Source: Ignavibacteria bacterium (GTDB lineage: Bacteria; Bacteroidota; Ignavibacteria; Tepidaquicellales; OLB5). Taken from it: 64,000 nucleotides of DNA. The position numbers were made by a program, and so were the translations under genes. Location of the stretch: the NCBI GenBank assembly GCA_039933555.1, contig JBDTNV010000002.1:1520-65519 (forward strand), in the 5' to 3' direction. This document shows positions 2,851 through 24,341 of the stretch, one piece after another. A model generated the notes under the pieces. That model was not told where the DNA came from, searched no databases, and saw only the letters and a program-made list of their open reading frames with translations. Position 1 is the stretch's first letter. Each line of letters opens with the position of its first letter.

Positions 2851-3954
2851 TTAAACACTTAAATAGGGCATTGCAGTTTCAAATACATTCAAAACATCAA
2901 TATTTTTTATATTTTCTCCGGATGCCTGAATCGAAGCTTTATTTACACCAATAGGACCCCATTCATATGCTTTTGTAGGCCCAAATAGCCCAATAACAGG
3001 GATATCAAATCCAGACGCAAGATGCATAATTCCCGTATCATTTGATATAAATAGGGAGGTTTTGCTGATATTTGCAGCATTTTTCATCAATTCCCCATAA
3101 TATTTAGAGTATGTAACATGCGGGTATTTGTTTTTTAAGCTCTTTTCAAGGTTTTCGATATACTTCTTGTCATCCGGGCCCTCGGAAATATAGAAATATG
3201 CACTTGTTCTTCTATATAGTAACTCCATCAACTCAGCAAATTTTTCGGGTGGCCACACATTTTGCTCCTTGGCTGCGCCGGGGTGCAATCCGATCACCAT
3301 TCTACGGCTTTCAGGAAAGTTAGATGAGTAGTATTCTGCTGCAAAATTTTCTGTCTCAGGGGTTAGTTTTAACTTTATCGAGCTTTCACTGCGTGGAATC
3401 CCAAGCTGCCATATAACATCAAGATTCCTTTCGATCTGATGAACTTTCTTGGAATCCCATAAAAAGTCTTTTTTGATGTTAAGAGTGTAACCTATTTTAT
3501 TCTGCTCAAAATCTTTTGACCTGACCCCGGCCCGGAATTTAGCCTGGGAATAATATGCAATTAAATGATTCGAAGCCGAAAATATTACCGAAGATGGCAC
3601 TAAAGCAAGCTGCGGTTTCTTCTCACGTAGGATCTTAATTAACTCTACAAACTTCTCAAATCCATATTCATACAAAATCACATTATCAACAGGTGAGAAA
3701 TTGTTTTCAAAAATTTCCTTAAACTTCGTAGAGCTTTTTGTAACGAGAGTAATTTCTGCTTCAGGATAATAATTTCTTAAGGCGCGCATCATAGGTAAAG
3801 AGCATAACATATCACCAAGCTGGTGCCTTACTATAACTAAAATATTTTTAATGTTTACTAGTTCTTCATGTGAGGGTGATACGTCTTTTTCAAGAACAAA
3901 TCCCTTGAATATTTTTAATCCAAAATCCCCGAGTATCTTTTCTATCTTGCTCAA
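2851..3954 (-). CDS. Glycosyltransferase family 9 (ADP-heptose:LPS heptosyltransferase-like)
   Basis: 367 aa. N-terminal ..VRHQLGDMLCSLPMMRALRNYYPEAEITLV.. and C-terminal ..SNDTGIMHLASGFDIPVIGLFGPT.. are GT9 signatures. Confidence 0.8.
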   Translation of the reverse strand: MSKIEKILGDFGLKIFKGFVLEKDVSPSHEELVNIKNILVIVRHQLGDMLCSLPMMRALRNYYPEAEITLVTKSSTKFKEIFENNFSPVDNVILYEYGFEKFVELIKILREKKPQLALVPSSVIFSASNHLIAYYSQAKFRAGVRSKDFEQNKIGYTLNIKKDFLWDSKKVHQIERNLDVIWQLGIPRSESSIKLKLTPETENFAAEYYSSNFPESRRMVIGLHPGAAKEQNVWPPEKFAELMELLYRRTSAYFYISEGPDDKKYIENLEKSLKNKYPHVTYSKYYGELMKNAANISKTSLFISNDTGIMHLASGFDIPVIGLFGPTKAYEWGPIGVNKASIQASGENIKNIDVLNVFETAMPYLSV

Positions 3955-3964
3955 ACCAAAGCGC

Positions 3965-4159
3965 TCAGTCTTTCTTCACTTCGCGAAACTCAGCATCCTG
4001 TATCATATTTACATCATAAGATTTCTTTTGAGAGGTATTTTCTTTGCCGGGTTTACCGTTGTTCTGCTGACCGGTGTTTTGCCTAGATAAATTTCTGAGA
4101 AATCTTCTGATAAATAGAAATACAAAATATAAAAGTATTGCAATTATTACATAGCGCAT
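3965..4159 (-). CDS. Small single-pass membrane protein (DUF4834-like)
   Basis: 64 aa with a hydrophobic N-terminus MRYVIIAILLYFVFLFI, then a polar tail ending ..DAEFREVKKD. Its ATG overlaps the stop of the upstream kinase gene (TAATG), which suggests translational coupling. Confidence 0.45.
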   Translation of the reverse strand: MRYVIIAILLYFVFLFIRRFLRNLSRQNTGQQNNGKPGKENTSQKKSYDVNMIQDAEFREVKKD

Positions 4160-4830
4160 TATTGGGCTGCTTTCCTAAGTGAAGGGTTATAATATTTTAC
4201 AGCCGATTGATCTGATTTAAAAATTTCGTTTACCAAGTCATCAAAATCCGCTGTGTTATTCACAAAATCAGTTTCTTCGCAGTTCACAATCATAATTTTA
4301 GTTGCTTTATATCTCGAAAAGAAATAATTATAAGCTTCATTCAGGCTGTTAATATATTCTTCGCTGATTTCTTTTTCAATCTCTCTTTGTCTCTTTCTAA
4401 TATTCTGCATAAGTCTTTCAACCGAAGACTGCAGGTAAATAACTAGGTCCGGTACAACTATCCCTTTATCAAGTCCCTGAACAACCAGTTCATATATCTT
4501 TAACTCGTCGTCACTAAGATTTAAATATGCAAAAATCTTGTCTTTTTCAAAAATATAATCGCTTACAACAAAATTCTGGAAAAGCTCTTTCTGGTGAACA
4601 TTCTGAAGCTGGGTATACCTTTCAAGCAGAAAGAACATTTGTGTTCTAAGAGCATATTCCTCGGGCCTGATGTAAAATTTTTCAAGAAAAGGGTTATCTT
4701 CAAAGTTTTCAAGTATCAGCTTGGCATTAAGCCGCTCTGAGAGCATTTGCGCAATTGATGTTTTGCCTGCGCCAATAACACCCTCTACAGCAATATAACT
4801 TAAACTTGTATTGGAAATATTACTAATCAA
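4159..4830 (-). CDS. Deoxynucleoside kinase family protein
   Basis: 223 aa. P-loop IAVEGVIGAGKTS followed by ..ENFEDNPFLEKFY.., typical of dNK/dGK/dAK kinases. Confidence 0.8.
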   Translation of the reverse strand: MISNISNTSLSYIAVEGVIGAGKTSIAQMLSERLNAKLILENFEDNPFLEKFYIRPEEYALRTQMFFLLERYTQLQNVHQKELFQNFVVSDYIFEKDKIFAYLNLSDDELKIYELVVQGLDKGIVVPDLVIYLQSSVERLMQNIRKRQREIEKEISEEYINSLNEAYNYFFSRYKATKIMIVNCEETDFVNNTADFDDLVNEIFKSDQSAVKYYNPSLRKAAQ

Positions 4831-5323
4831 ATGATATTACTTCTTTAACTTTACAATTATCTGTACTTTTCTCATAAAGGCTTTTTATACTTTTATTAAG
4901 AATTGGATGAATAAACCCCGGTATTAGTTCAACAAGGGGTTTAAGAACAAAATTCCTTTGCTGAATACACGGATGCGGAACTTTTAGCTTATATTCATTA
5001 ATTATTTTGCTTCCATAAAAAAGGACATCAATATCAATTTCTCTTGCCTGCCACTTGCTGTTATCCTTCCTGCCTGCATCGATTTCATAACTTTTTAAAA
5101 GTACCAGAAGTTCAGCTGGTTCCAGCCTGCACAGGAATACTGCAGCGCAATTTAAGAAGTTGTTTTGTTTTTTATATCCCCAAGGCTCAGTTTCATAAAT
5201 TTTTGAAACTGCAAGTAGATTAAGATCTTTGTTTAATGAAAGGGTTCTTAAAGCTCTCTTAATATTTAGAAACCTGTTCCCCATATTTGAACCAAATCCC
5301 AGTACTGCTTTTTCTGCTATCAA
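4823..5323 (-). CDS. folK: 2-amino-4-hydroxy-6-hydroxymethyldihydropteridine pyrophosphokinase (HPPK)
   Basis: 166 aa with ..GSNMGNR.., ..ETEPWG.., ..REIDIDVLFYG.. and ..LKVPHP..RNFVLKPL.. Overlaps the downstream kinase gene by 8 nt. Confidence 0.85.
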   Translation of the reverse strand: MIAEKAVLGFGSNMGNRFLNIKRALRTLSLNKDLNLLAVSKIYETEPWGYKKQNNFLNCAAVFLCRLEPAELLVLLKSYEIDAGRKDNSKWQAREIDIDVLFYGSKIINEYKLKVPHPCIQQRNFVLKPLVELIPGFIHPILNKSIKSLYEKSTDNCKVKEVISFD

Positions 5324-19858: not shown

Positions 19859-20641
19859 TTATTGAGATTCGTAAAGTGTTTTGAAATTTTGAAACGCGCT
19901 AAACAGGGCTATGGCTATATCATTTTGTCCTTTATCACTTGAAAGGTACTTTTCATCGTTTATATCGGATAGATACCCGGTTTCCACAAGAACTGAAGGC
20001 ATTGAAGCTCCAAGCGTTACCCAATTCCCCGCCTGGTAAACTCCCCGGGAAATCAATTCAGAGTGATCAAGCATGTTCACTTCTATGATAGATGCAAGAT
20101 ACTCACTGAGCCTGGTATAACCGCTTTGAGCTAAACTTGAAAAAATGAAGTTATCAATTGTATCTCTTCCAAACTGGCTAAAAGCAATCTGGTAATTCTG
20201 TTTCATTGTAAATTCAACTGCTTCAGGAAACCTTTCTTTGTTTAAAAGATATACTTCAAATCCCTGCTTCTCACTTTCTTCCTGCTTCTTGTGATTTGCA
20301 TGTATGCTGATAAAAAGTTTTGCCCTTTGGTTATTTGCTGCAATTGTTCTATCCTTAACCTGCGAGTACTCATCAGTTGTCCTGGAATAAATTACTTTTA
20401 CCTCAGGATACTTTTCTTCTATTAATTTGCCAAGTTTTATTCCAATCGGCAGGACGATATTTTTTTCCTGTACGCCGGTTTTATCGCCGATAGTCCCGGG
20501 GTCTTTACCCCCATGACCGGGATCAATATAAATTACATCAAGCTTTGGCTGCGCCAGCAATGAACAATTAACAACGATCAATGAACAATATATCACAGAT
20601 AGAAATATGTGTGATTTGTATTTAATTATCAAATTGTTCAT
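19859..20641 (-). CDS. N-acetylmuramoyl-L-alanine amidase (Amidase_3 family)
   Basis: 260 aa with ..IDPGHGGKDPGTIG.., ..FISIHAN.. and ..SVLVETGYLSD.. Confidence 0.85.
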   Translation of the reverse strand: MNNLIIKYKSHIFLSVIYCSLIVVNCSLLAQPKLDVIYIDPGHGGKDPGTIGDKTGVQEKNIVLPIGIKLGKLIEEKYPEVKVIYSRTTDEYSQVKDRTIAANNQRAKLFISIHANHKKQEESEKQGFEVYLLNKERFPEAVEFTMKQNYQIAFSQFGRDTIDNFIFSSLAQSGYTRLSEYLASIIEVNMLDHSELISRGVYQAGNWVTLGASMPSVLVETGYLSDINDEKYLSSDKGQNDIAIALFSAFQNFKTLYESQ

Positions 20642-20668
20642 TGCTAATTGCTCATTGTTAATTGAATG

Positions 20669-21166
20669 TTATCTGTAGTTTGTGAATTGAACGGCAAAAT
20701 CAAGATCAGCGCTTTTTACCAGCCCCATTGCTTCCTGTAGCATATCTTTATCCCTGCCTGAAACACGAACCTGCTCATCCTGAATAGCTGCCTGAACCTT
20801 TATTTTTGAATCTTTTATTATCTTTACTATCAGCTTTGCATTCTCTTTACTGATGCCCTGCAGCACTTCAATTATCTGCCTTACCATACTGCCGCCGGCT
20901 TCTTCCTGAGGCTTAAATTGCATAGATTTCAGTGGAATCCCCCGCTTGACAAACTTATTCTGAAGCATATCAACAATTGCTTTCGATTTATAGTCATCAT
21001 CAGCCAGTATTGTTATAGTTTTATCTTTTTGAGAATACTCAATTGTGCTTTTAGATCCCTTAAAGTCATACCTTGAAAGAATCTCTTTTCTTGTCTGGTT
21101 GATTGCATTATCAACTTCCTGCCAGTCAATTTCTGAAACTATATCAAATGAATATGTATCTGCCAT
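20669..21166 (-). CDS. yajQ: YajQ family nucleotide-binding protein (UPF0234)
   Basis: 165 aa. N-terminus ..YSFDIVSEIDWQEVDNAINQTRKEILSRYDFKG.. is the YajQ signature. Confidence 0.85.
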   Translation of the reverse strand: MADTYSFDIVSEIDWQEVDNAINQTRKEILSRYDFKGSKSTIEYSQKDKTITILADDDYKSKAIVDMLQNKFVKRGIPLKSMQFKPQEEAGGSMVRQIIEVLQGISKENAKLIVKIIKDSKIKVQAAIQDEQVRVSGRDKDMLQEAMGLVKSADLDFAVQFTNYR

Positions 21167-21187
21167 GATATTATTGTATTAATTTAG

Positions 21188-21628
21188 TTATTTACCATTT
21201 TTAGAAAAAACTGTACTTGCTTCAAGCCCTGATATTTCAAGTATTGCATTCCATACTTTTTCAGGAACCGGCTGAACTGACAGCCTTCCTTCGGTAACAA
21301 TTCTGGAATCAAATGTGCGCTTATCTTTTTTGATCTCTTCAAGAGTAACAGGGTTAGGAAGCCTGCGTCTTGGCTTAATATCAAAAATGAATATTTTGGG
21401 GTTACCAGCTTTGGGGTCAACATACGGATCAGTTGTTATTTCACATATTCCGACAACCTGCTTTTCTTTACCTGTATGATAGATAAAAGCAACATCACCC
21501 TTCCGTGCAGTTTTGATCTGGAACAGCCCGCCCGGACTTGTAACGCCATCCCAAACAGCCTTTTTATCACGCTCCAAGTCAGAGTATGAATAAACTGTTG
21601 GTTCTGTTTTAAATAAATAGTATGCCAT
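21188..21628 (-). CDS. EVE (PUA-like) domain protein
   Basis: 146 aa with MAYYLFKTEPTVYSYSDLERDKKAVWDGV.. and ..GDVAFIYHTG.. Confidence 0.8.
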   Translation of the reverse strand: MAYYLFKTEPTVYSYSDLERDKKAVWDGVTSPGGLFQIKTARKGDVAFIYHTGKEKQVVGICEITTDPYVDPKAGNPKIFIFDIKPRRRLPNPVTLEEIKKDKRTFDSRIVTEGRLSVQPVPEKVWNAILEISGLEASTVFSKNGK

Positions 21629-21639
21629 AGTTCAAATAT

Positions 21640-21663
21640 CAAATAATAAATATCAAATAACAA
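21640..21663. repeat. Left arm of a perfect 24-nt inverted repeat flanking the four-helix-bundle gene
   Basis: CAAATAATAAATATCAAATAACAA. The exact reverse complement is at 22098..22121. Built from two tandem AAATATCAAATAA units. Confidence 0.85.
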
Positions 21664-21673
21664 CTTTTATTTT

Positions 21674-22057
21674 TTATTTCGGATTTTTTTTGCTTTTCTT
21701 CTTAATTCTGGTAGTATCTATAATTGAATATGATATTTTGCATAACTCATCACAATCCAATAACAATGAATCAAATAATTTTTTCTCAATATAATCTGCT
21801 GCATGTAATAATTTAAGCCAATATTTAGTTTCTCTGGCTTCTTTATATGCTGTCGAAACTTTATTTGAAAAATCAGCATCACTAATACCGCCATGAGCTT
21901 CTTCTGCATTAGCCCCAATTGATGTTCCACATCTTAAAATTTGCTTTGATAAAACATACTCTTTGTTTTCTTTACACAAATATTGGTATAACCTGATAAT
22001 TCTAATGGCAAACACAAAAGATTTGTCAAGTAATGCATTTTCTCCGCTTATATTCAT
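21674..22057 (-). CDS. Four-helix-bundle protein (23S rRNA intervening-sequence protein / Avd-like family)
   Basis: 127 aa with ..FVFAIRIIRLYQYL.., ..LSKQILRCGTSIGANAEEA.., ..DFSNKVSTAYKEARETKYWLKLL.. Confidence 0.8.
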   Translation of the reverse strand: MNISGENALLDKSFVFAIRIIRLYQYLCKENKEYVLSKQILRCGTSIGANAEEAHGGISDADFSNKVSTAYKEARETKYWLKLLHAADYIEKKLFDSLLLDCDELCKISYSIIDTTRIKKKSKKNPK

Positions 22058-22097
22058 TTCTATAATATTAAGAATTTATAAATTTGATTTATAATAT

Positions 22098-22121
22098 TTG
22101 TTATTTGATATTTATTATTTG
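22098..22121. repeat. Right arm of the 24-nt inverted repeat
   Basis: TTGTTATTTGATATTTATTATTTG. Abuts the helicase stop codon (22122..22124) with no spacer. Confidence 0.85.
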
Positions 22122-24341
22122 TTATTTAATCGTCAGATTCGCATATTTCAAAATAATATTCTTCACCCCAACTTTATCAAAATGAATAGAAGCCTTCTTC
22201 GCATCGCCTCTGCCGGTTACATCTAAAACCCTGCCATTGCCAAAATTGTTATGGAATACCGAGCTGCCCTTTTTAACTCCCACATCCTCACGGAAAATAT
22301 CATTAAGCACATCATCACTGGATTTATTTTTGTAATACTCATATTTAATTGAGCTCCCCTCTTCCTGATGAGAGCGGCTCTTATGTCTTGTCATGGCAGT
22401 ACTCTTAACATAATTAAGCTTGCCTGTATCGATCTCATTCAAAAATCTTGATTTCATCTGGTAGCTCACGTTACCAAAACGGTATCTTTGCAATGCATAA
22501 GTCATATACAGCTTCTGCATAGCTCTTGTAATAGCCACATAGAATAGCCTCCGCTCTTCTTCCATTTCTTCCTGCTCGAGCATAGAGCTTGAAAGCGGAA
22601 ATATTCCGTCTTCAAGTCCCGTAATAAACACAACAGGATACTCAAGTCCCTTTGATGAATGTGTTGTCATTAAAGTCACAGCATTTTTCTCGTCATCATA
22701 TTTATCAAGGTCAGTAACTAAGCTCACTTCCTGCAGAAACCCTTCAAGTGTTGCGCCTTCAGTATTATCGGTGTATTCTGAAATACCCGAGAGCAATTCC
22801 TGCACATTGTACATTCTATCCATGGATTCATCGGTACCGTCATTTCTTAATTCCCGTAGTATTCCAATTTCGTCAACAATACTTCTTGCAAGCTCACTGG
22901 GAGAAAGACCCTCTTTCACTTCGTTATACTTTTTGATGATCTCAGCGACCCTTATGAGCTCATTTTCTATCTTGGTTTTTCTTTTTTGTTTTTCTTCAGC
23001 GCCGGATTCCTTATCTTCAAGCATTGCAAGCAGTACTTCAGCAATTGATTTTGCAATTTCCCTCGCCATATTCCTTATCTTCTCAACTGTCTGCTCTCCG
23101 ATACCTTCTCTCAGCTTAAGAATCCTTATCATAGCCTCATCATCCTTTGGATTAACCAGAACCTTAAGGTAAGCAAGAACATCCTTGATCTCTTTCCGCT
23201 GGTAGAATTTTACACCTCCTACTATTACATATGGAATAGAATTAGTCCTGAGTGCATCTTCAATTACTCTTGACTGAGCGTTAGTACGGTATAATACAAC
23301 GAAATCCTTGAAATTCAGCTTCCTGTTCTGAATTTCGTGCAGTATCCACTTAACGATCATCATACCTTCATCACGGTCACTGAATACTTCCGTCAATGTA
23401 ACCTTCTCGCCTTCTTCATTATCAGTGAACAGTGTCTTCTTTATTTGCCGTTTATTGTTCTTTATTACTTCATCAGCAAGCAAGAGTATACTTTTTGTGG
23501 AGCGGTAATTCTGTTCAAGCTTAAACACATTGGTCTTTTCAAAATCAGATTCAAACTTCAGGATGTTTTCAATCTCCGCTCCGCGCCACCTGTAAATACT
23601 TTGCGCATCATCCCCCACTACTGAAATATTCCCATGACCTTCGGCAAGCATCTTCACAATTTCATACTGTGCTTTATTTGTATCCTGGTATTCATCAACT
23701 AAGATGAACTTAAAGCGGTTCTGGTATTTTTGAAGTACATCCGGATTTGTGCGGAATAAAATTATTGGATTGATAAGCAGGTCATCAAAATCCATGGCAT
23801 TATTCTTTATCAGCCTGTTCTGGTATTCCCTGTAGACAGGAAGGGCAATTCTTTCAAATGGATTTGTAACAGCTGGAATTTCATCTGGAAGGATCAATTT
23901 ATTTTTCCAGTTCTTGATATAATTATTCACTGCCCTTGGTTTCGGATTATCGGTTGGAAAGCCAAGCTCCTTCATGACGGATTCAACAAGTTTTTCTGAA
24001 TCATCGTCATCATATATAGTAAAGTTTCGGTCAAACCCGATATGCTGTGCTTCAATCCTCAAGATCTTTGCAAAAACAGAATGGAAAGTACCCATCCATA
24101 TACTTTCTGCTGATGCGCCGACTAACTTATGAATTCGCTGCTTCATTTCGTTTGCCGCTTTATTTGTAAAGGTAAGCGCAAGCATCTCAAACGGGTTGAT
24201 ACCTGATTCAATCAAAAAAGCTATTTTATATGTTAAAACCCTTGTTTTTCCGCTGCCGGCACCAGCAACAATCATGCACGGCCCCTCTATTTGTTCAACA
24301 GCTTTCCTTTGCTCTAAATTGAGTTCGTTTACTAAGTCCAA
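22122..24341 (-). CDS. UvrD/PcrA/Rep-family ATP-dependent DNA helicase
   Basis: 739 aa with ..LNLEQRKAVEQIEGPCMIVAGAGSGKTRVLTYKIAFL.., ..ILVDEYQDTN.., ..VGDDAQSIYRWRGA.. and ..TTHSSKGLEYPVVF.. Confidence 0.9.
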   Translation of the reverse strand: MDLVNELNLEQRKAVEQIEGPCMIVAGAGSGKTRVLTYKIAFLIESGINPFEMLALTFTNKAANEMKQRIHKLVGASAESIWMGTFHSVFAKILRIEAQHIGFDRNFTIYDDDDSEKLVESVMKELGFPTDNPKPRAVNNYIKNWKNKLILPDEIPAVTNPFERIALPVYREYQNRLIKNNAMDFDDLLINPIILFRTNPDVLQKYQNRFKFILVDEYQDTNKAQYEIVKMLAEGHGNISVVGDDAQSIYRWRGAEIENILKFESDFEKTNVFKLEQNYRSTKSILLLADEVIKNNKRQIKKTLFTDNEEGEKVTLTEVFSDRDEGMMIVKWILHEIQNRKLNFKDFVVLYRTNAQSRVIEDALRTNSIPYVIVGGVKFYQRKEIKDVLAYLKVLVNPKDDEAMIRILKLREGIGEQTVEKIRNMAREIAKSIAEVLLAMLEDKESGAEEKQKRKTKIENELIRVAEIIKKYNEVKEGLSPSELARSIVDEIGILRELRNDGTDESMDRMYNVQELLSGISEYTDNTEGATLEGFLQEVSLVTDLDKYDDEKNAVTLMTTHSSKGLEYPVVFITGLEDGIFPLSSSMLEQEEMEEERRLFYVAITRAMQKLYMTYALQRYRFGNVSYQMKSRFLNEIDTGKLNYVKSTAMTRHKSRSHQEEGSSIKYEYYKNKSSDDVLNDIFREDVGVKKGSSVFHNNFGNGRVLDVTGRGDAKKASIHFDKVGVKNIILKYANLTIK

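Follow-up and report, generated by a model that had tools for sequence, protein, structure and literature searches.

A 64-kb stretch of the metagenome-assembled genome of an Ignavibacteria bacterium (contig JBDTNV010000002.1; hereafter the window, coded WIN in our comparisons) carries, between a uvrD/pcrA helicase gene and the gene of an EVE-domain protein, a small four-helix-bundle (4HB) protein gene of the PF05635 family, which is enclosed by two mirrored arrays of 7-nt units. This family was named more than 30 years ago for open reading frames (ORFs) carried by intervening sequences (IVSs) of the 23S rRNA and, to our knowledge, it is still without a function. In the operon studied here, arms and gene behave as one unit that is inserted or deleted as a whole, its gene is under purifying selection, and comparable arms flank most of the surveyed members of the family in many bacterial phyla. 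The 4HB copies found outside rRNA keep the architecture of an IVS, a mirrored-heptamer helix that begins where a co-directional host gene has its stop codon. We consider it reasonably probable, if by no means certain, that the cassette is an ORF-bearing element of the IVS type residing in an operon mRNA, from which it would probably be looped out or excised by RNase III.

Anatomy of the cassette

A preliminary description of this DNA, made by inspection of the letters, had drawn attention to a 24-nt perfect inverted repeat, and the repeat is indeed there: CAAATAATAAATATCAAATAACAA at positions 21640-21663 is matched by an exact reverse complement at 22098-22121. The possibility that this 24-mer was a common AT-rich string scattered along the DNA did not hold, as only these 2 copies occur in the 64-kb window even when up to 3 mismatches are allowed, with an expectation of 0 (100 shuffles). 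The imperfect similarity noticed further outwards extends the repeat to two arms of 37 nt (21634-21670 and 22091-22127), which are 92% complementary, have 420 nt between them and constitute the top inverted repeat of the window. The arms, with a GC content of 8%, had been read as two tandem ~13-mers each, a division that has to be replaced by a unit of 7 nt: Tandem Repeats Finder (TRF) reports a period of 7 with 4.7 copies at 22095-22127 and 4.6 copies at 21632-21663, and the perfect period-14 repeat that it also detects within the arms corresponds to two heptamers. In the sense strand, the upstream arm reads (CAAATAN)n and the downstream arm (NTATTTG)n, around the PF05635/TIGR02436 gene. Two other long-range inverted repeats, 60575/61032 and 62420/63194, fall within a 1092-aa ORF of the window; they look chance-like and were discarded. 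The features of the locus are as follows, where L followed by a number designates a fetched relative locus or contig:

22122-24341, minus strand: gene of a UvrD/PcrA-family helicase, the co-directional host gene upstream of the cassette (Pfam, NCBIfam)
22122-22124, minus strand: TAA stop codon of uvrD/pcrA, inside the first heptamer of the 5' arm, C AAA TAA being the unit CAAATAA (ORF list; the C-terminus ...LT[I/L]K-stop is common to empty and filled junctions)
22091-22127, minus strand: 5' arm, a heptamer array divided into AAATAA, CAAATAA, TAAATAT, CAAATAA and CAAATAT, starting within the last uvrD codons (ATT AAA TAA) and including the stop (repeat search, TRF, junction comparison)
22058-22090, minus strand: spacer or leader of ~33 nt from the 5' arm to the ATG of the 4HB gene, AAATCAAATTTATAAATTCTTAATATTATAGAA (ortholog alignment)
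21674-22057, minus strand: 4HB protein gene, 127 aa (PF05635 23S_rRNA_IVP, TIGR02436), under purifying selection
21634-21670, minus strand: 3' arm, an (NTATTTG)n array, the complement of the 5' arm; it stops 5 nt short of the EVE start codon (repeat search, TRF)
21626-21628, minus strand: EVE start codon, found 1-4 nt past the uvrD stop in relatives with an empty site (21 nt in L108)
21188-21628, minus strand: gene of the EVE-domain protein, the co-directional host gene downstream of the cassette (Pfam)

The whole unit measures ~480-494 bp. Its right arm, previously seen as touching the uvrD stop codon, in fact overlaps it, and its left arm was rightly placed next to the EVE ATG (21628), the 24-nt core ending 11 nt before this codon. 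The arms enclose a single credible gene, that of the 4HB protein, whose assignment to this fold was correct in the preliminary description, with matches to PF05635 (E 1e-26, 93.7 bits for a cut-off of 33.8) and TIGR02436 (E 3e-30, 104.8 bits for a cut-off of 24). The closest solved structure is 2RLD (E 2e-31), an entry with 5 chains that we take to come from Bacteroides thetaiotaomicron. Across orthologs, the gene shows dN/dS values of 0.05-0.09, comparable to those of the adjacent EVE gene, and the protein keeps an invariant GTSIGAN..E motif. The 64-kb window contains no further 4HB paralog.

The short leader at 22058-22090 is conserved among orthologs despite near-saturated synonymous sites (dS 0.9 between the window and L001), and a promoter of its own, a translation leader or a binding site are all candidate roles for it. 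When the minus-strand RNA of the region 21620-22140 is folded, the arms form the expected closing helix in both the minimum free energy and the centroid structures (dG -101 kcal/mol, z -3.0). Rfam has no family matching the arms or the cassette, either in the window or in eight strong cassettes. A sub-threshold match to RF03531 (n00280, described as a C. difficile sRNA included into a helicase gene; 49.7 bits for a gathering threshold of 65.2) falls at 22490-22586 of the minus strand, within the uvrD coding region, and most likely reflects conserved helicase coding sequence.

Filled and empty sites in related Ignavibacteria

The closest homologs of the 4HB protein (76-87% protein identity) are all encoded at the uvrD-EVE junction of related Ignavibacteria contigs. 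In five distinct orthologous loci, the gene and its mirrored heptamer arms are kept at the same junction, with arms of 4 to ~8 units that differ in the letters at the variable position. The UvrD proteins of these filled lineages are 83-90% identical to that of the window, and the cassette has been vertically inherited within the clade.

Searching with the EVE protein, we found the same operon without the cassette. In four relatives, the uvrD TAA is followed by 1-21 nt and the ATG of EVE, and the gap is of 1-4 nt in three of the four: L103 and L104 read ...CTC AAA TAA-TACT-ATG, L105 and L106 read TAA-T-ATG, whereas L108 has a 21-nt spacer. The filled sites read TAA-CAAATAN...4HB...NTATTTG-ACT ATG, the C-terminus of UvrD and the N-terminus of EVE being unchanged. 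No 4HB ORF occurs in the cassette-free loci L103-L108, and comparison of empty and filled junctions revealed no target-site duplication. The unit CAAATAA coincides with the last 7 nt of uvrD, and the same 7 nt are found at the empty sites. A UvrD tree places the empty L105 within the filled lineages, as the sister of L017 and with 91% identity to L001, so that either a single gain and a single precise loss or several gains have to be assumed. These clean empty sites, together with the nested position of L105, indicate that arms and gene have been gained or lost as one unit, so the idea of a self-contained insertable cassette, raised in the preliminary description together with a search for empty sites at this very junction, stands up well.

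Two pairs of loci show a marked difference between the cassette and its downstream neighbour: the dS of the 4HB gene is 0.013 for L011 vs L013 and 0.07 for L001 vs L005, and that of the adjacent EVE gene is 0.66 and 0.49, respectively. Horizontal transfer of the cassette was considered as the cause. A recombination breakpoint just downstream of the cassette fits better, because uvrD is near-identical as well in these pairs (UvrD 98-99% identical).

At the same junction, L107 carries instead of the cassette an unrelated GC-rich palindromic element of 96 nt (L107:3905-4000; TTGTCATTCCTGCGCAGGC...GCCTGCGCAGGAATGACAA). The uvrD-EVE junction seems to attract hairpin-forming insertions.

Mirrored heptamer arms across the PF05635 family

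A first homology search gave ~8,000 relatives of the 4HB protein. For the survey, a 4HB alignment was compared with species-representative genomes, from which 80 loci were obtained, covering Bacteroidota, Ignavibacteria, Verrucomicrobiota, Clostridia, Desulfobacterota, Planctomycetota, Cyanobacteria, Myxococcota and others. Each of these 80 loci is flanked by protein-coding or tRNA genes, and none is inside rRNA. Rfam detected no rRNA context in 19 loci that have weak or absent arms, or that lack a co-directional upstream protein gene, where a single tRNA neighbour was found.

The complementarity of the flanks was scored by aligning the 150 nt upstream of each gene to the reverse complement of the 150 nt downstream. 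A score of at least 16 is reached by 59% of 79 4HB genes and by 1.5% of 391 neighbouring genes (Mann-Whitney p 8e-33), most of these high-scoring neighbours merely abutting a 4HB gene, and 78% of the 79 4HB genes reach at least 12. Strong arms are nearly always heptamer arrays, such as (TTACGAA)x7 in L095, (TGAATTA)n in L078, (GCAAAAT)n in L090 or (GACAGAT)n in L045. The surveyed loci contain 89 arrays of period 7, and at most 5 of each of the periods 5, 6, 8 and 9. Most of these heptamer arrays (57/89) are no further than 200 nt from a 4HB gene, and the sequence so delimited is 5.7% of the total. The consensus unit of the family is AATTANN, from which the unit of the window, AAATAAC, departs by one step. 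Cassettes vary in their units and copy numbers, even when two of them occur in one metagenome-assembled genome (MAG; L023 vs L026), and arms pair better with their own partner than with those of other cassettes (median score 18 vs 9), the own partner being in the top 5% for 51% of the cassettes. A closing helix of at least 15 bp is predicted for 83% of the cassettes vs 29% of control genes of similar size.

The position of the cassettes with respect to their hosts is also recurrent. The upstream neighbour is co-directional in 61/64 cases (95%, vs a baseline of 70%), with median gaps of ~50 nt. Among 41 strong cassettes, 34 have the stop codon of a co-directional upstream ORF near the 5' arm, which starts at a median of -3 nt relative to that stop and within 10 nt of it in 62% of these 34 cassettes. 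The 3' arm ends ~10 nt before the downstream ATG in the 19 of 41 strong cassettes with a callable ORF start. Heptamers containing a stop codon are not significantly more frequent than expected from composition (77% vs 70%), and the upstream genes are not enriched in TAA stops. IVS-like arms are therefore the rule for the PF05635 family across phyla and not a peculiarity of this locus. The earlier idea of an IVS-like cassette in an mRNA was largely right, including its likeness to the intervening sequences of 23S rRNA; it was too narrow, the arrangement being a feature of the family.

Comparison with known systems

The best-described relative is the IVS in the 23S rRNA of Coxiella, which is 428 nt long and located in helix 45 (Warrier et al. 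2016, PMC4990558). It holds the S23p ORF within a 28-bp terminal stem and, upstream of the ORF, 2-3 tandem GACAGAT heptamers whose number depends on the strain; RNase III cuts the stem in vitro at the start of the first repeat, and the ORF was judged expendable (PMC4990558). Our cassette resembles the ORF-bearing 23S IVSs of Coxiella and Leptospira in having a protein of the same family in the loop and a long terminal helix of inverted repeats, and it shares with that of Coxiella the tandem heptamers of variable number in the stem, upstream of the ORF. The size is also similar (428 nt vs ~480-494 bp), and the Coxiella unit GACAGAT is the very one that flanks the 4HB gene of L045. In contrast, the cassette lies between two protein-coding genes of an operon and not in helix 25 or 45 of the 23S rRNA (Rfam finds no rRNA at 20500-23000 of the window), and its gene is under strong purifying selection, unlike the Coxiella ORF. 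Its architecture is thus that of an IVS in an operon mRNA, and, as it is not in rRNA, it is not an ORF-bearing IVS in the strict sense; it is best filed as a variant of the IVS class.

Short tandemly repeated repetitive (STRR) sequences of cyanobacteria are a class of intergenic heptamer repeats. In Beggiatoaceae, Cyanobacteria and Bacteroidetes, solo arrays of direct TAACTGA repeats were described by MacGregor (2015, PMC4679880), who found them just before start codons or overlapping ORF ends, in 2 to many copies with 7-nt steps, and proposed an unknown post-transcriptional regulator for them. The text of that paper makes no mention of "23S", "intervening" or "four helix", nor does it draw any link to PF05635 or IVSs. 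These arrays and ours are alike in their tandem 7-nt units, intergenic location, proximity to start codons or ORF ends, and phyla, and TAACTGA/TAACTGT is the unit of the 3' arms in the 4HB cassettes of L037 and L062. They differ in that TAACTGA arrays are direct and solo, whereas two inverted arrays with another unit (CAAATAN/NTATTTG) bracket a gene here. We found no paper linking operon-embedded 4HB genes to heptamer stems, although our coverage of the literature is incomplete and an earlier description is possible.

Repetitive extragenic palindromes (REP) and bacterial interspersed mosaic elements (BIME) with their RAYT genes, as well as miniature inverted-repeat transposable elements (MITEs), are hairpin-forming intergenic repeats, sometimes inverted around the single gene thought to act on them, and show presence/absence differences between strains. 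Unlike them, the cassette has arms made of tandem 7-nt arrays instead of a palindromic unit, and neither a Y1 transposase nor a target-site duplication. An insertion sequence or MITE was rejected for similar reasons: inverted repeats are present, but neither a target-site duplication nor, in the locus and its orthologs, a transposase accompanies them, and the arms vary between copies. An integron gene cassette, which would have one attC site 3' of a promoterless ORF and belong to an array beside an integron integrase, was discarded as well: here heptamer arrays flank the ORF on either side, and there is no integrase gene among the neighbours.

The same fold is found in Avd, the accessory protein of diversity-generating retroelements (DGRs), a positively charged pentameric barrel that works with the DGR RNA (PMC6182149), and PF05635 is the Pfam family that matches Avd-like DGR proteins (PMC10053308). 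This match would be a reason to regard our gene as an Avd gene or a DGR remnant, an interpretation of practically negligible probability: no reverse transcriptase gene is found near the window locus or any ortholog, and a repeat search of the window yielded short tandem repeats only, with neither a template/variable repeat pair nor long direct repeats. The 4HB protein is not part of a DGR.

A model for the cassette and its alternatives

The cassette sits exactly between the uvrD stop and the EVE start, holding the 4HB gene and its short leader in the loop of a mirrored-heptamer helix, whose (CAAATAN)n and (NTATTTG)n arrays are a local variant of the family-wide AATTANN unit. A scan for sigma-70 promoters gave chance-level matches, a Bacteroidetes-type TAnnTTTG box was not found (inspection by eye only) and no terminator was detected. 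In the model that we favour, transcription from uvrD would probably read through the cassette, and the arms would pair in the polycistronic RNA over ~37 bp, 24 of them perfect, looping out the cassette and bringing the uvrD stop and the EVE start back together. By homology with the 23S IVSs of Coxiella and Leptospira, this A/U-rich duplex would most likely be cut by RNase III, which would release the 4HB mRNA as a stem-closed RNA and would separate the uvrD mRNA from that of EVE, yajQ and amidase. Either by looping out or by cutting, the insertion would be made harmless to the host operon. If so, the model predicts a general route by which a gene can enter an operon without breaking it, the stop and the start codons being re-joined by loop-out or through RNase III.

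Several considerations weigh against this model. We infer both co-transcription and RNase III cleavage, the latter by homology only. The conserved leader could carry a type of promoter that is invisible to the sigma-70 scan. The mismatches of the arms, read in the sense strand, show no excess of G:U over A:C (89 vs 78, p 0.44), so complementarity may be kept by copying or slippage at the DNA level instead of by selection for RNA pairs. Moreover, an AATTA core shared across phyla and a strict 7-nt period are not explained by pairing alone, which keeps alive the readings based on DNA mobility and on protein-binding arrays. Finally, heptamer arrays are not confined to cassettes. Two samples were anchored on the arrays themselves, (CAAATAN)3 arrays from metagenome contigs and (AATTACG)3 arrays from viral contigs. 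A 4HB gene is found at a distance of up to 250 nt from only 3-4% of them, so the question of the preliminary description, whether the repeat always brackets such genes, has a negative answer. About 75% of the sampled arrays are solo and ~10% form short hairpins, indicating that the arrays have a life of their own; the solo ones show a mild bias of orientation with respect to transcription (45 vs 24, two samples pooled). The rare gene-sized brackets in these samples contain mostly 4HB genes and occasionally other small genes.

Chance pairing of AT-rich, low-complexity DNA, or a simple terminator or attenuator between uvrD and EVE, would be another explanation of the inverted repeat. The region is AT-rich, and predicted pairing of the flanks is occasionally seen for control genes of AT-rich loci too (at least 15 bp in 29%). 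This explanation is nevertheless very improbable: besides the absence of matches to the 24-mer in shuffled sequences, all orthologs and the family at large retain the repeat, a 384-nt ORF under selection lies within the stem, and a terminator scan found no terminator-like hairpin with a U tract. Shuffles, ortholog conservation and the family survey effectively refute it.

A mobile cassette acting at the DNA level deserves more consideration, being unlikely in our view but clearly not to be neglected. The inverted arrays would then be terminal recognition or recombination sites, or hairpin-forming ends, the RNA stem would be incidental, and the actor would be a recombinase provided in trans or the 4HB protein itself as a mobility factor. 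Such a scenario is compatible with an IVS-type element in the operon mRNA, because the element must have moved somehow. It accounts well for the precise presence or absence of the cassette among relatives, with an empty site nested among filled ones, for a multicopy family found in many unrelated gene contexts across phyla and, as reported for Arthrospira, among strain-unique genes (PMC8700078), and for the lack of G:U bias in the arms. The coincidence of CAAATAA with the end of uvrD, also at empty sites, hints at an insertion guided by microhomology or at a repeat derived from the target, and the different palindromic element at the L107 junction also speaks for mobility. Against mobility, there is no transposase, integrase or reverse transcriptase gene within ~4 kb in the window or the orthologous loci, nor a target-site duplication; the variation of units and copy numbers, even between L023 and L026 in one MAG, is unlike that of terminal inverted repeats bound by a transposase; and the cassette has been vertically inherited in a clade with 83-90% UvrD identity. 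In addition, we know of no nuclease or recombinase chemistry in 4HB proteins.

It is also conceivable, though rather improbable, that the heptamer arrays are putative binding sites of a sequence-specific RNA- or DNA-binding protein, possibly the pentameric 4HB protein itself, which would autoregulate its gene through its own flanks, with solo arrays as further targets and the complementarity of the arms as a secondary feature. The AATTANN core, kept from Bacteroidota to Clostridia, Desulfobacterota and Cyanobacteria, argues for such sites because pairing alone would not conserve a sequence, and so do the strict 7-nt period, with 4.6-4.7 units per window arm, the pentameric nature of fold relatives (Avd, PMC6182149; the 5 chains of 2RLD), the strong purifying selection on a protein with an invariant motif, and the unknown post-transcriptional regulator already proposed for TAACTGA arrays (PMC4679880). 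On the other hand, arrays far outnumber adjacent 4HB genes, and arms match their own partner better than those of other cassettes, which suggests pairing or a shared origin and not only a common protein motif.

Wider implications

A broader and more speculative proposal, to which we give a low probability, would merge these elements. In it, the PF05635 genes would form one half of a widespread system, and the still puzzling heptamer repeats known from Bacteroidota, Cyanobacteria, Ignavibacteriota and others (TAACTGA, STRRs) the other half. The pentameric 4HB protein would recognise arrays of the AATTANN type, either as RNA or as DNA, and its gene would move about in a self-insulating "IVS" cassette, inserted at the stop codon of transcribed host genes in mRNA, tRNA or rRNA operons. 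Solo and hairpin arrays would be its targets, footprints or offspring. If true, this would provide a function for a large orphan protein family and an origin for both rRNA IVSs and bacterial heptamer repeats. The IVS architecture of the 4HB copies found outside rRNA makes one testable problem of three puzzles, namely the origin of rRNA IVSs, the role of IVS and Avd-like proteins, and the meaning of the tandem heptamer repeats of several phyla.

Some inverted heptamer brackets enclose other genes. Three viral contigs (L241:1184-1549, L257:7899-8272 and L258:5950-6366) carry (AATTACG)n inverted arrays around small non-4HB genes, the contents of such viral brackets including a 115-aa coiled-coil-like protein whose gene lies in the other strand and a GemA-like 89-aa ORF, which suggests that the bracket may carry other cargo.

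Other repeats and insertions at the locus and in the surveyed genomes

Downstream of the cassette, EVE is followed by the YajQ gene and then by an Amidase_3 gene, all in the minus strand, and a RP005_N/Pyr_redox_2 protein is also encoded in the neighbourhood. The YajQ-amidase junction harbours a second inverted pair of heptamer arrays:

20632-20664, minus strand: 5' array of the second pair, CAATTAA CAATGAG CAATTAG CAATGAA, which contains the amidase ATG (TRF, fold)
20558-20589, minus strand: 3' array of the second pair, TTGTTCA TTGATCG TTGTTAA TTGTTCA, in the part of the amidase gene coding for a predicted signal peptide

Together they form a predicted stem-loop with a stem of ~20 bp or more and a loop of ~45 nt (dG -37.9 kcal/mol, z -4.7), which encloses no 4HB gene. 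This heptamer pair is found in all relatives, including those with an empty uvrD-EVE site, with units that differ by lineage.

Some relatives have in their EVE-YajQ gap an inserted methyltransferase gene, others a DUF4160 gene along with a small ORF, and L103 carries a ParE-toxin pair upstream of uvrD. A scan around the EVE-YajQ insertions of L001, L005 and L013, the only three covered, yielded no strict period-7 array. Variation of the operon at places other than the uvrD-EVE junction was recorded at these positions:

L001:5894-6458, operon variation
L005:5909-6715, operon variation
L013:5929-6735, operon variation
L108:4464-5264, operon variation
L103:1121-1629, operon variation

Among the surveyed genomes, L073 has two 4HB genes (1764-2129 and 4673-5254) 2.5 kb apart, around a 793-aa gene in the opposite strand, with strong heptamer arms on the first only. 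In L093, a tRNA gene comes directly after the 4HB gene. Likewise, in L060, a contig from Opitutales, a tRNA gene (3877-3961) and the 4HB gene (4007-4384) are surrounded by arrays that extend over L060:2318-4744: (CCTAATT)n arrays occur every ~150-300 nt, at 2854, 3165, 3404, 3630, 3775 and 4722, along with one inverted (AATTAGG)n array at 2318. In L035, from Ignavibacteriae, an (AATTAAG)n array of ~220 nt and ~30 units (L035:2578-2799) is located 1.2 kb from the 4HB gene.

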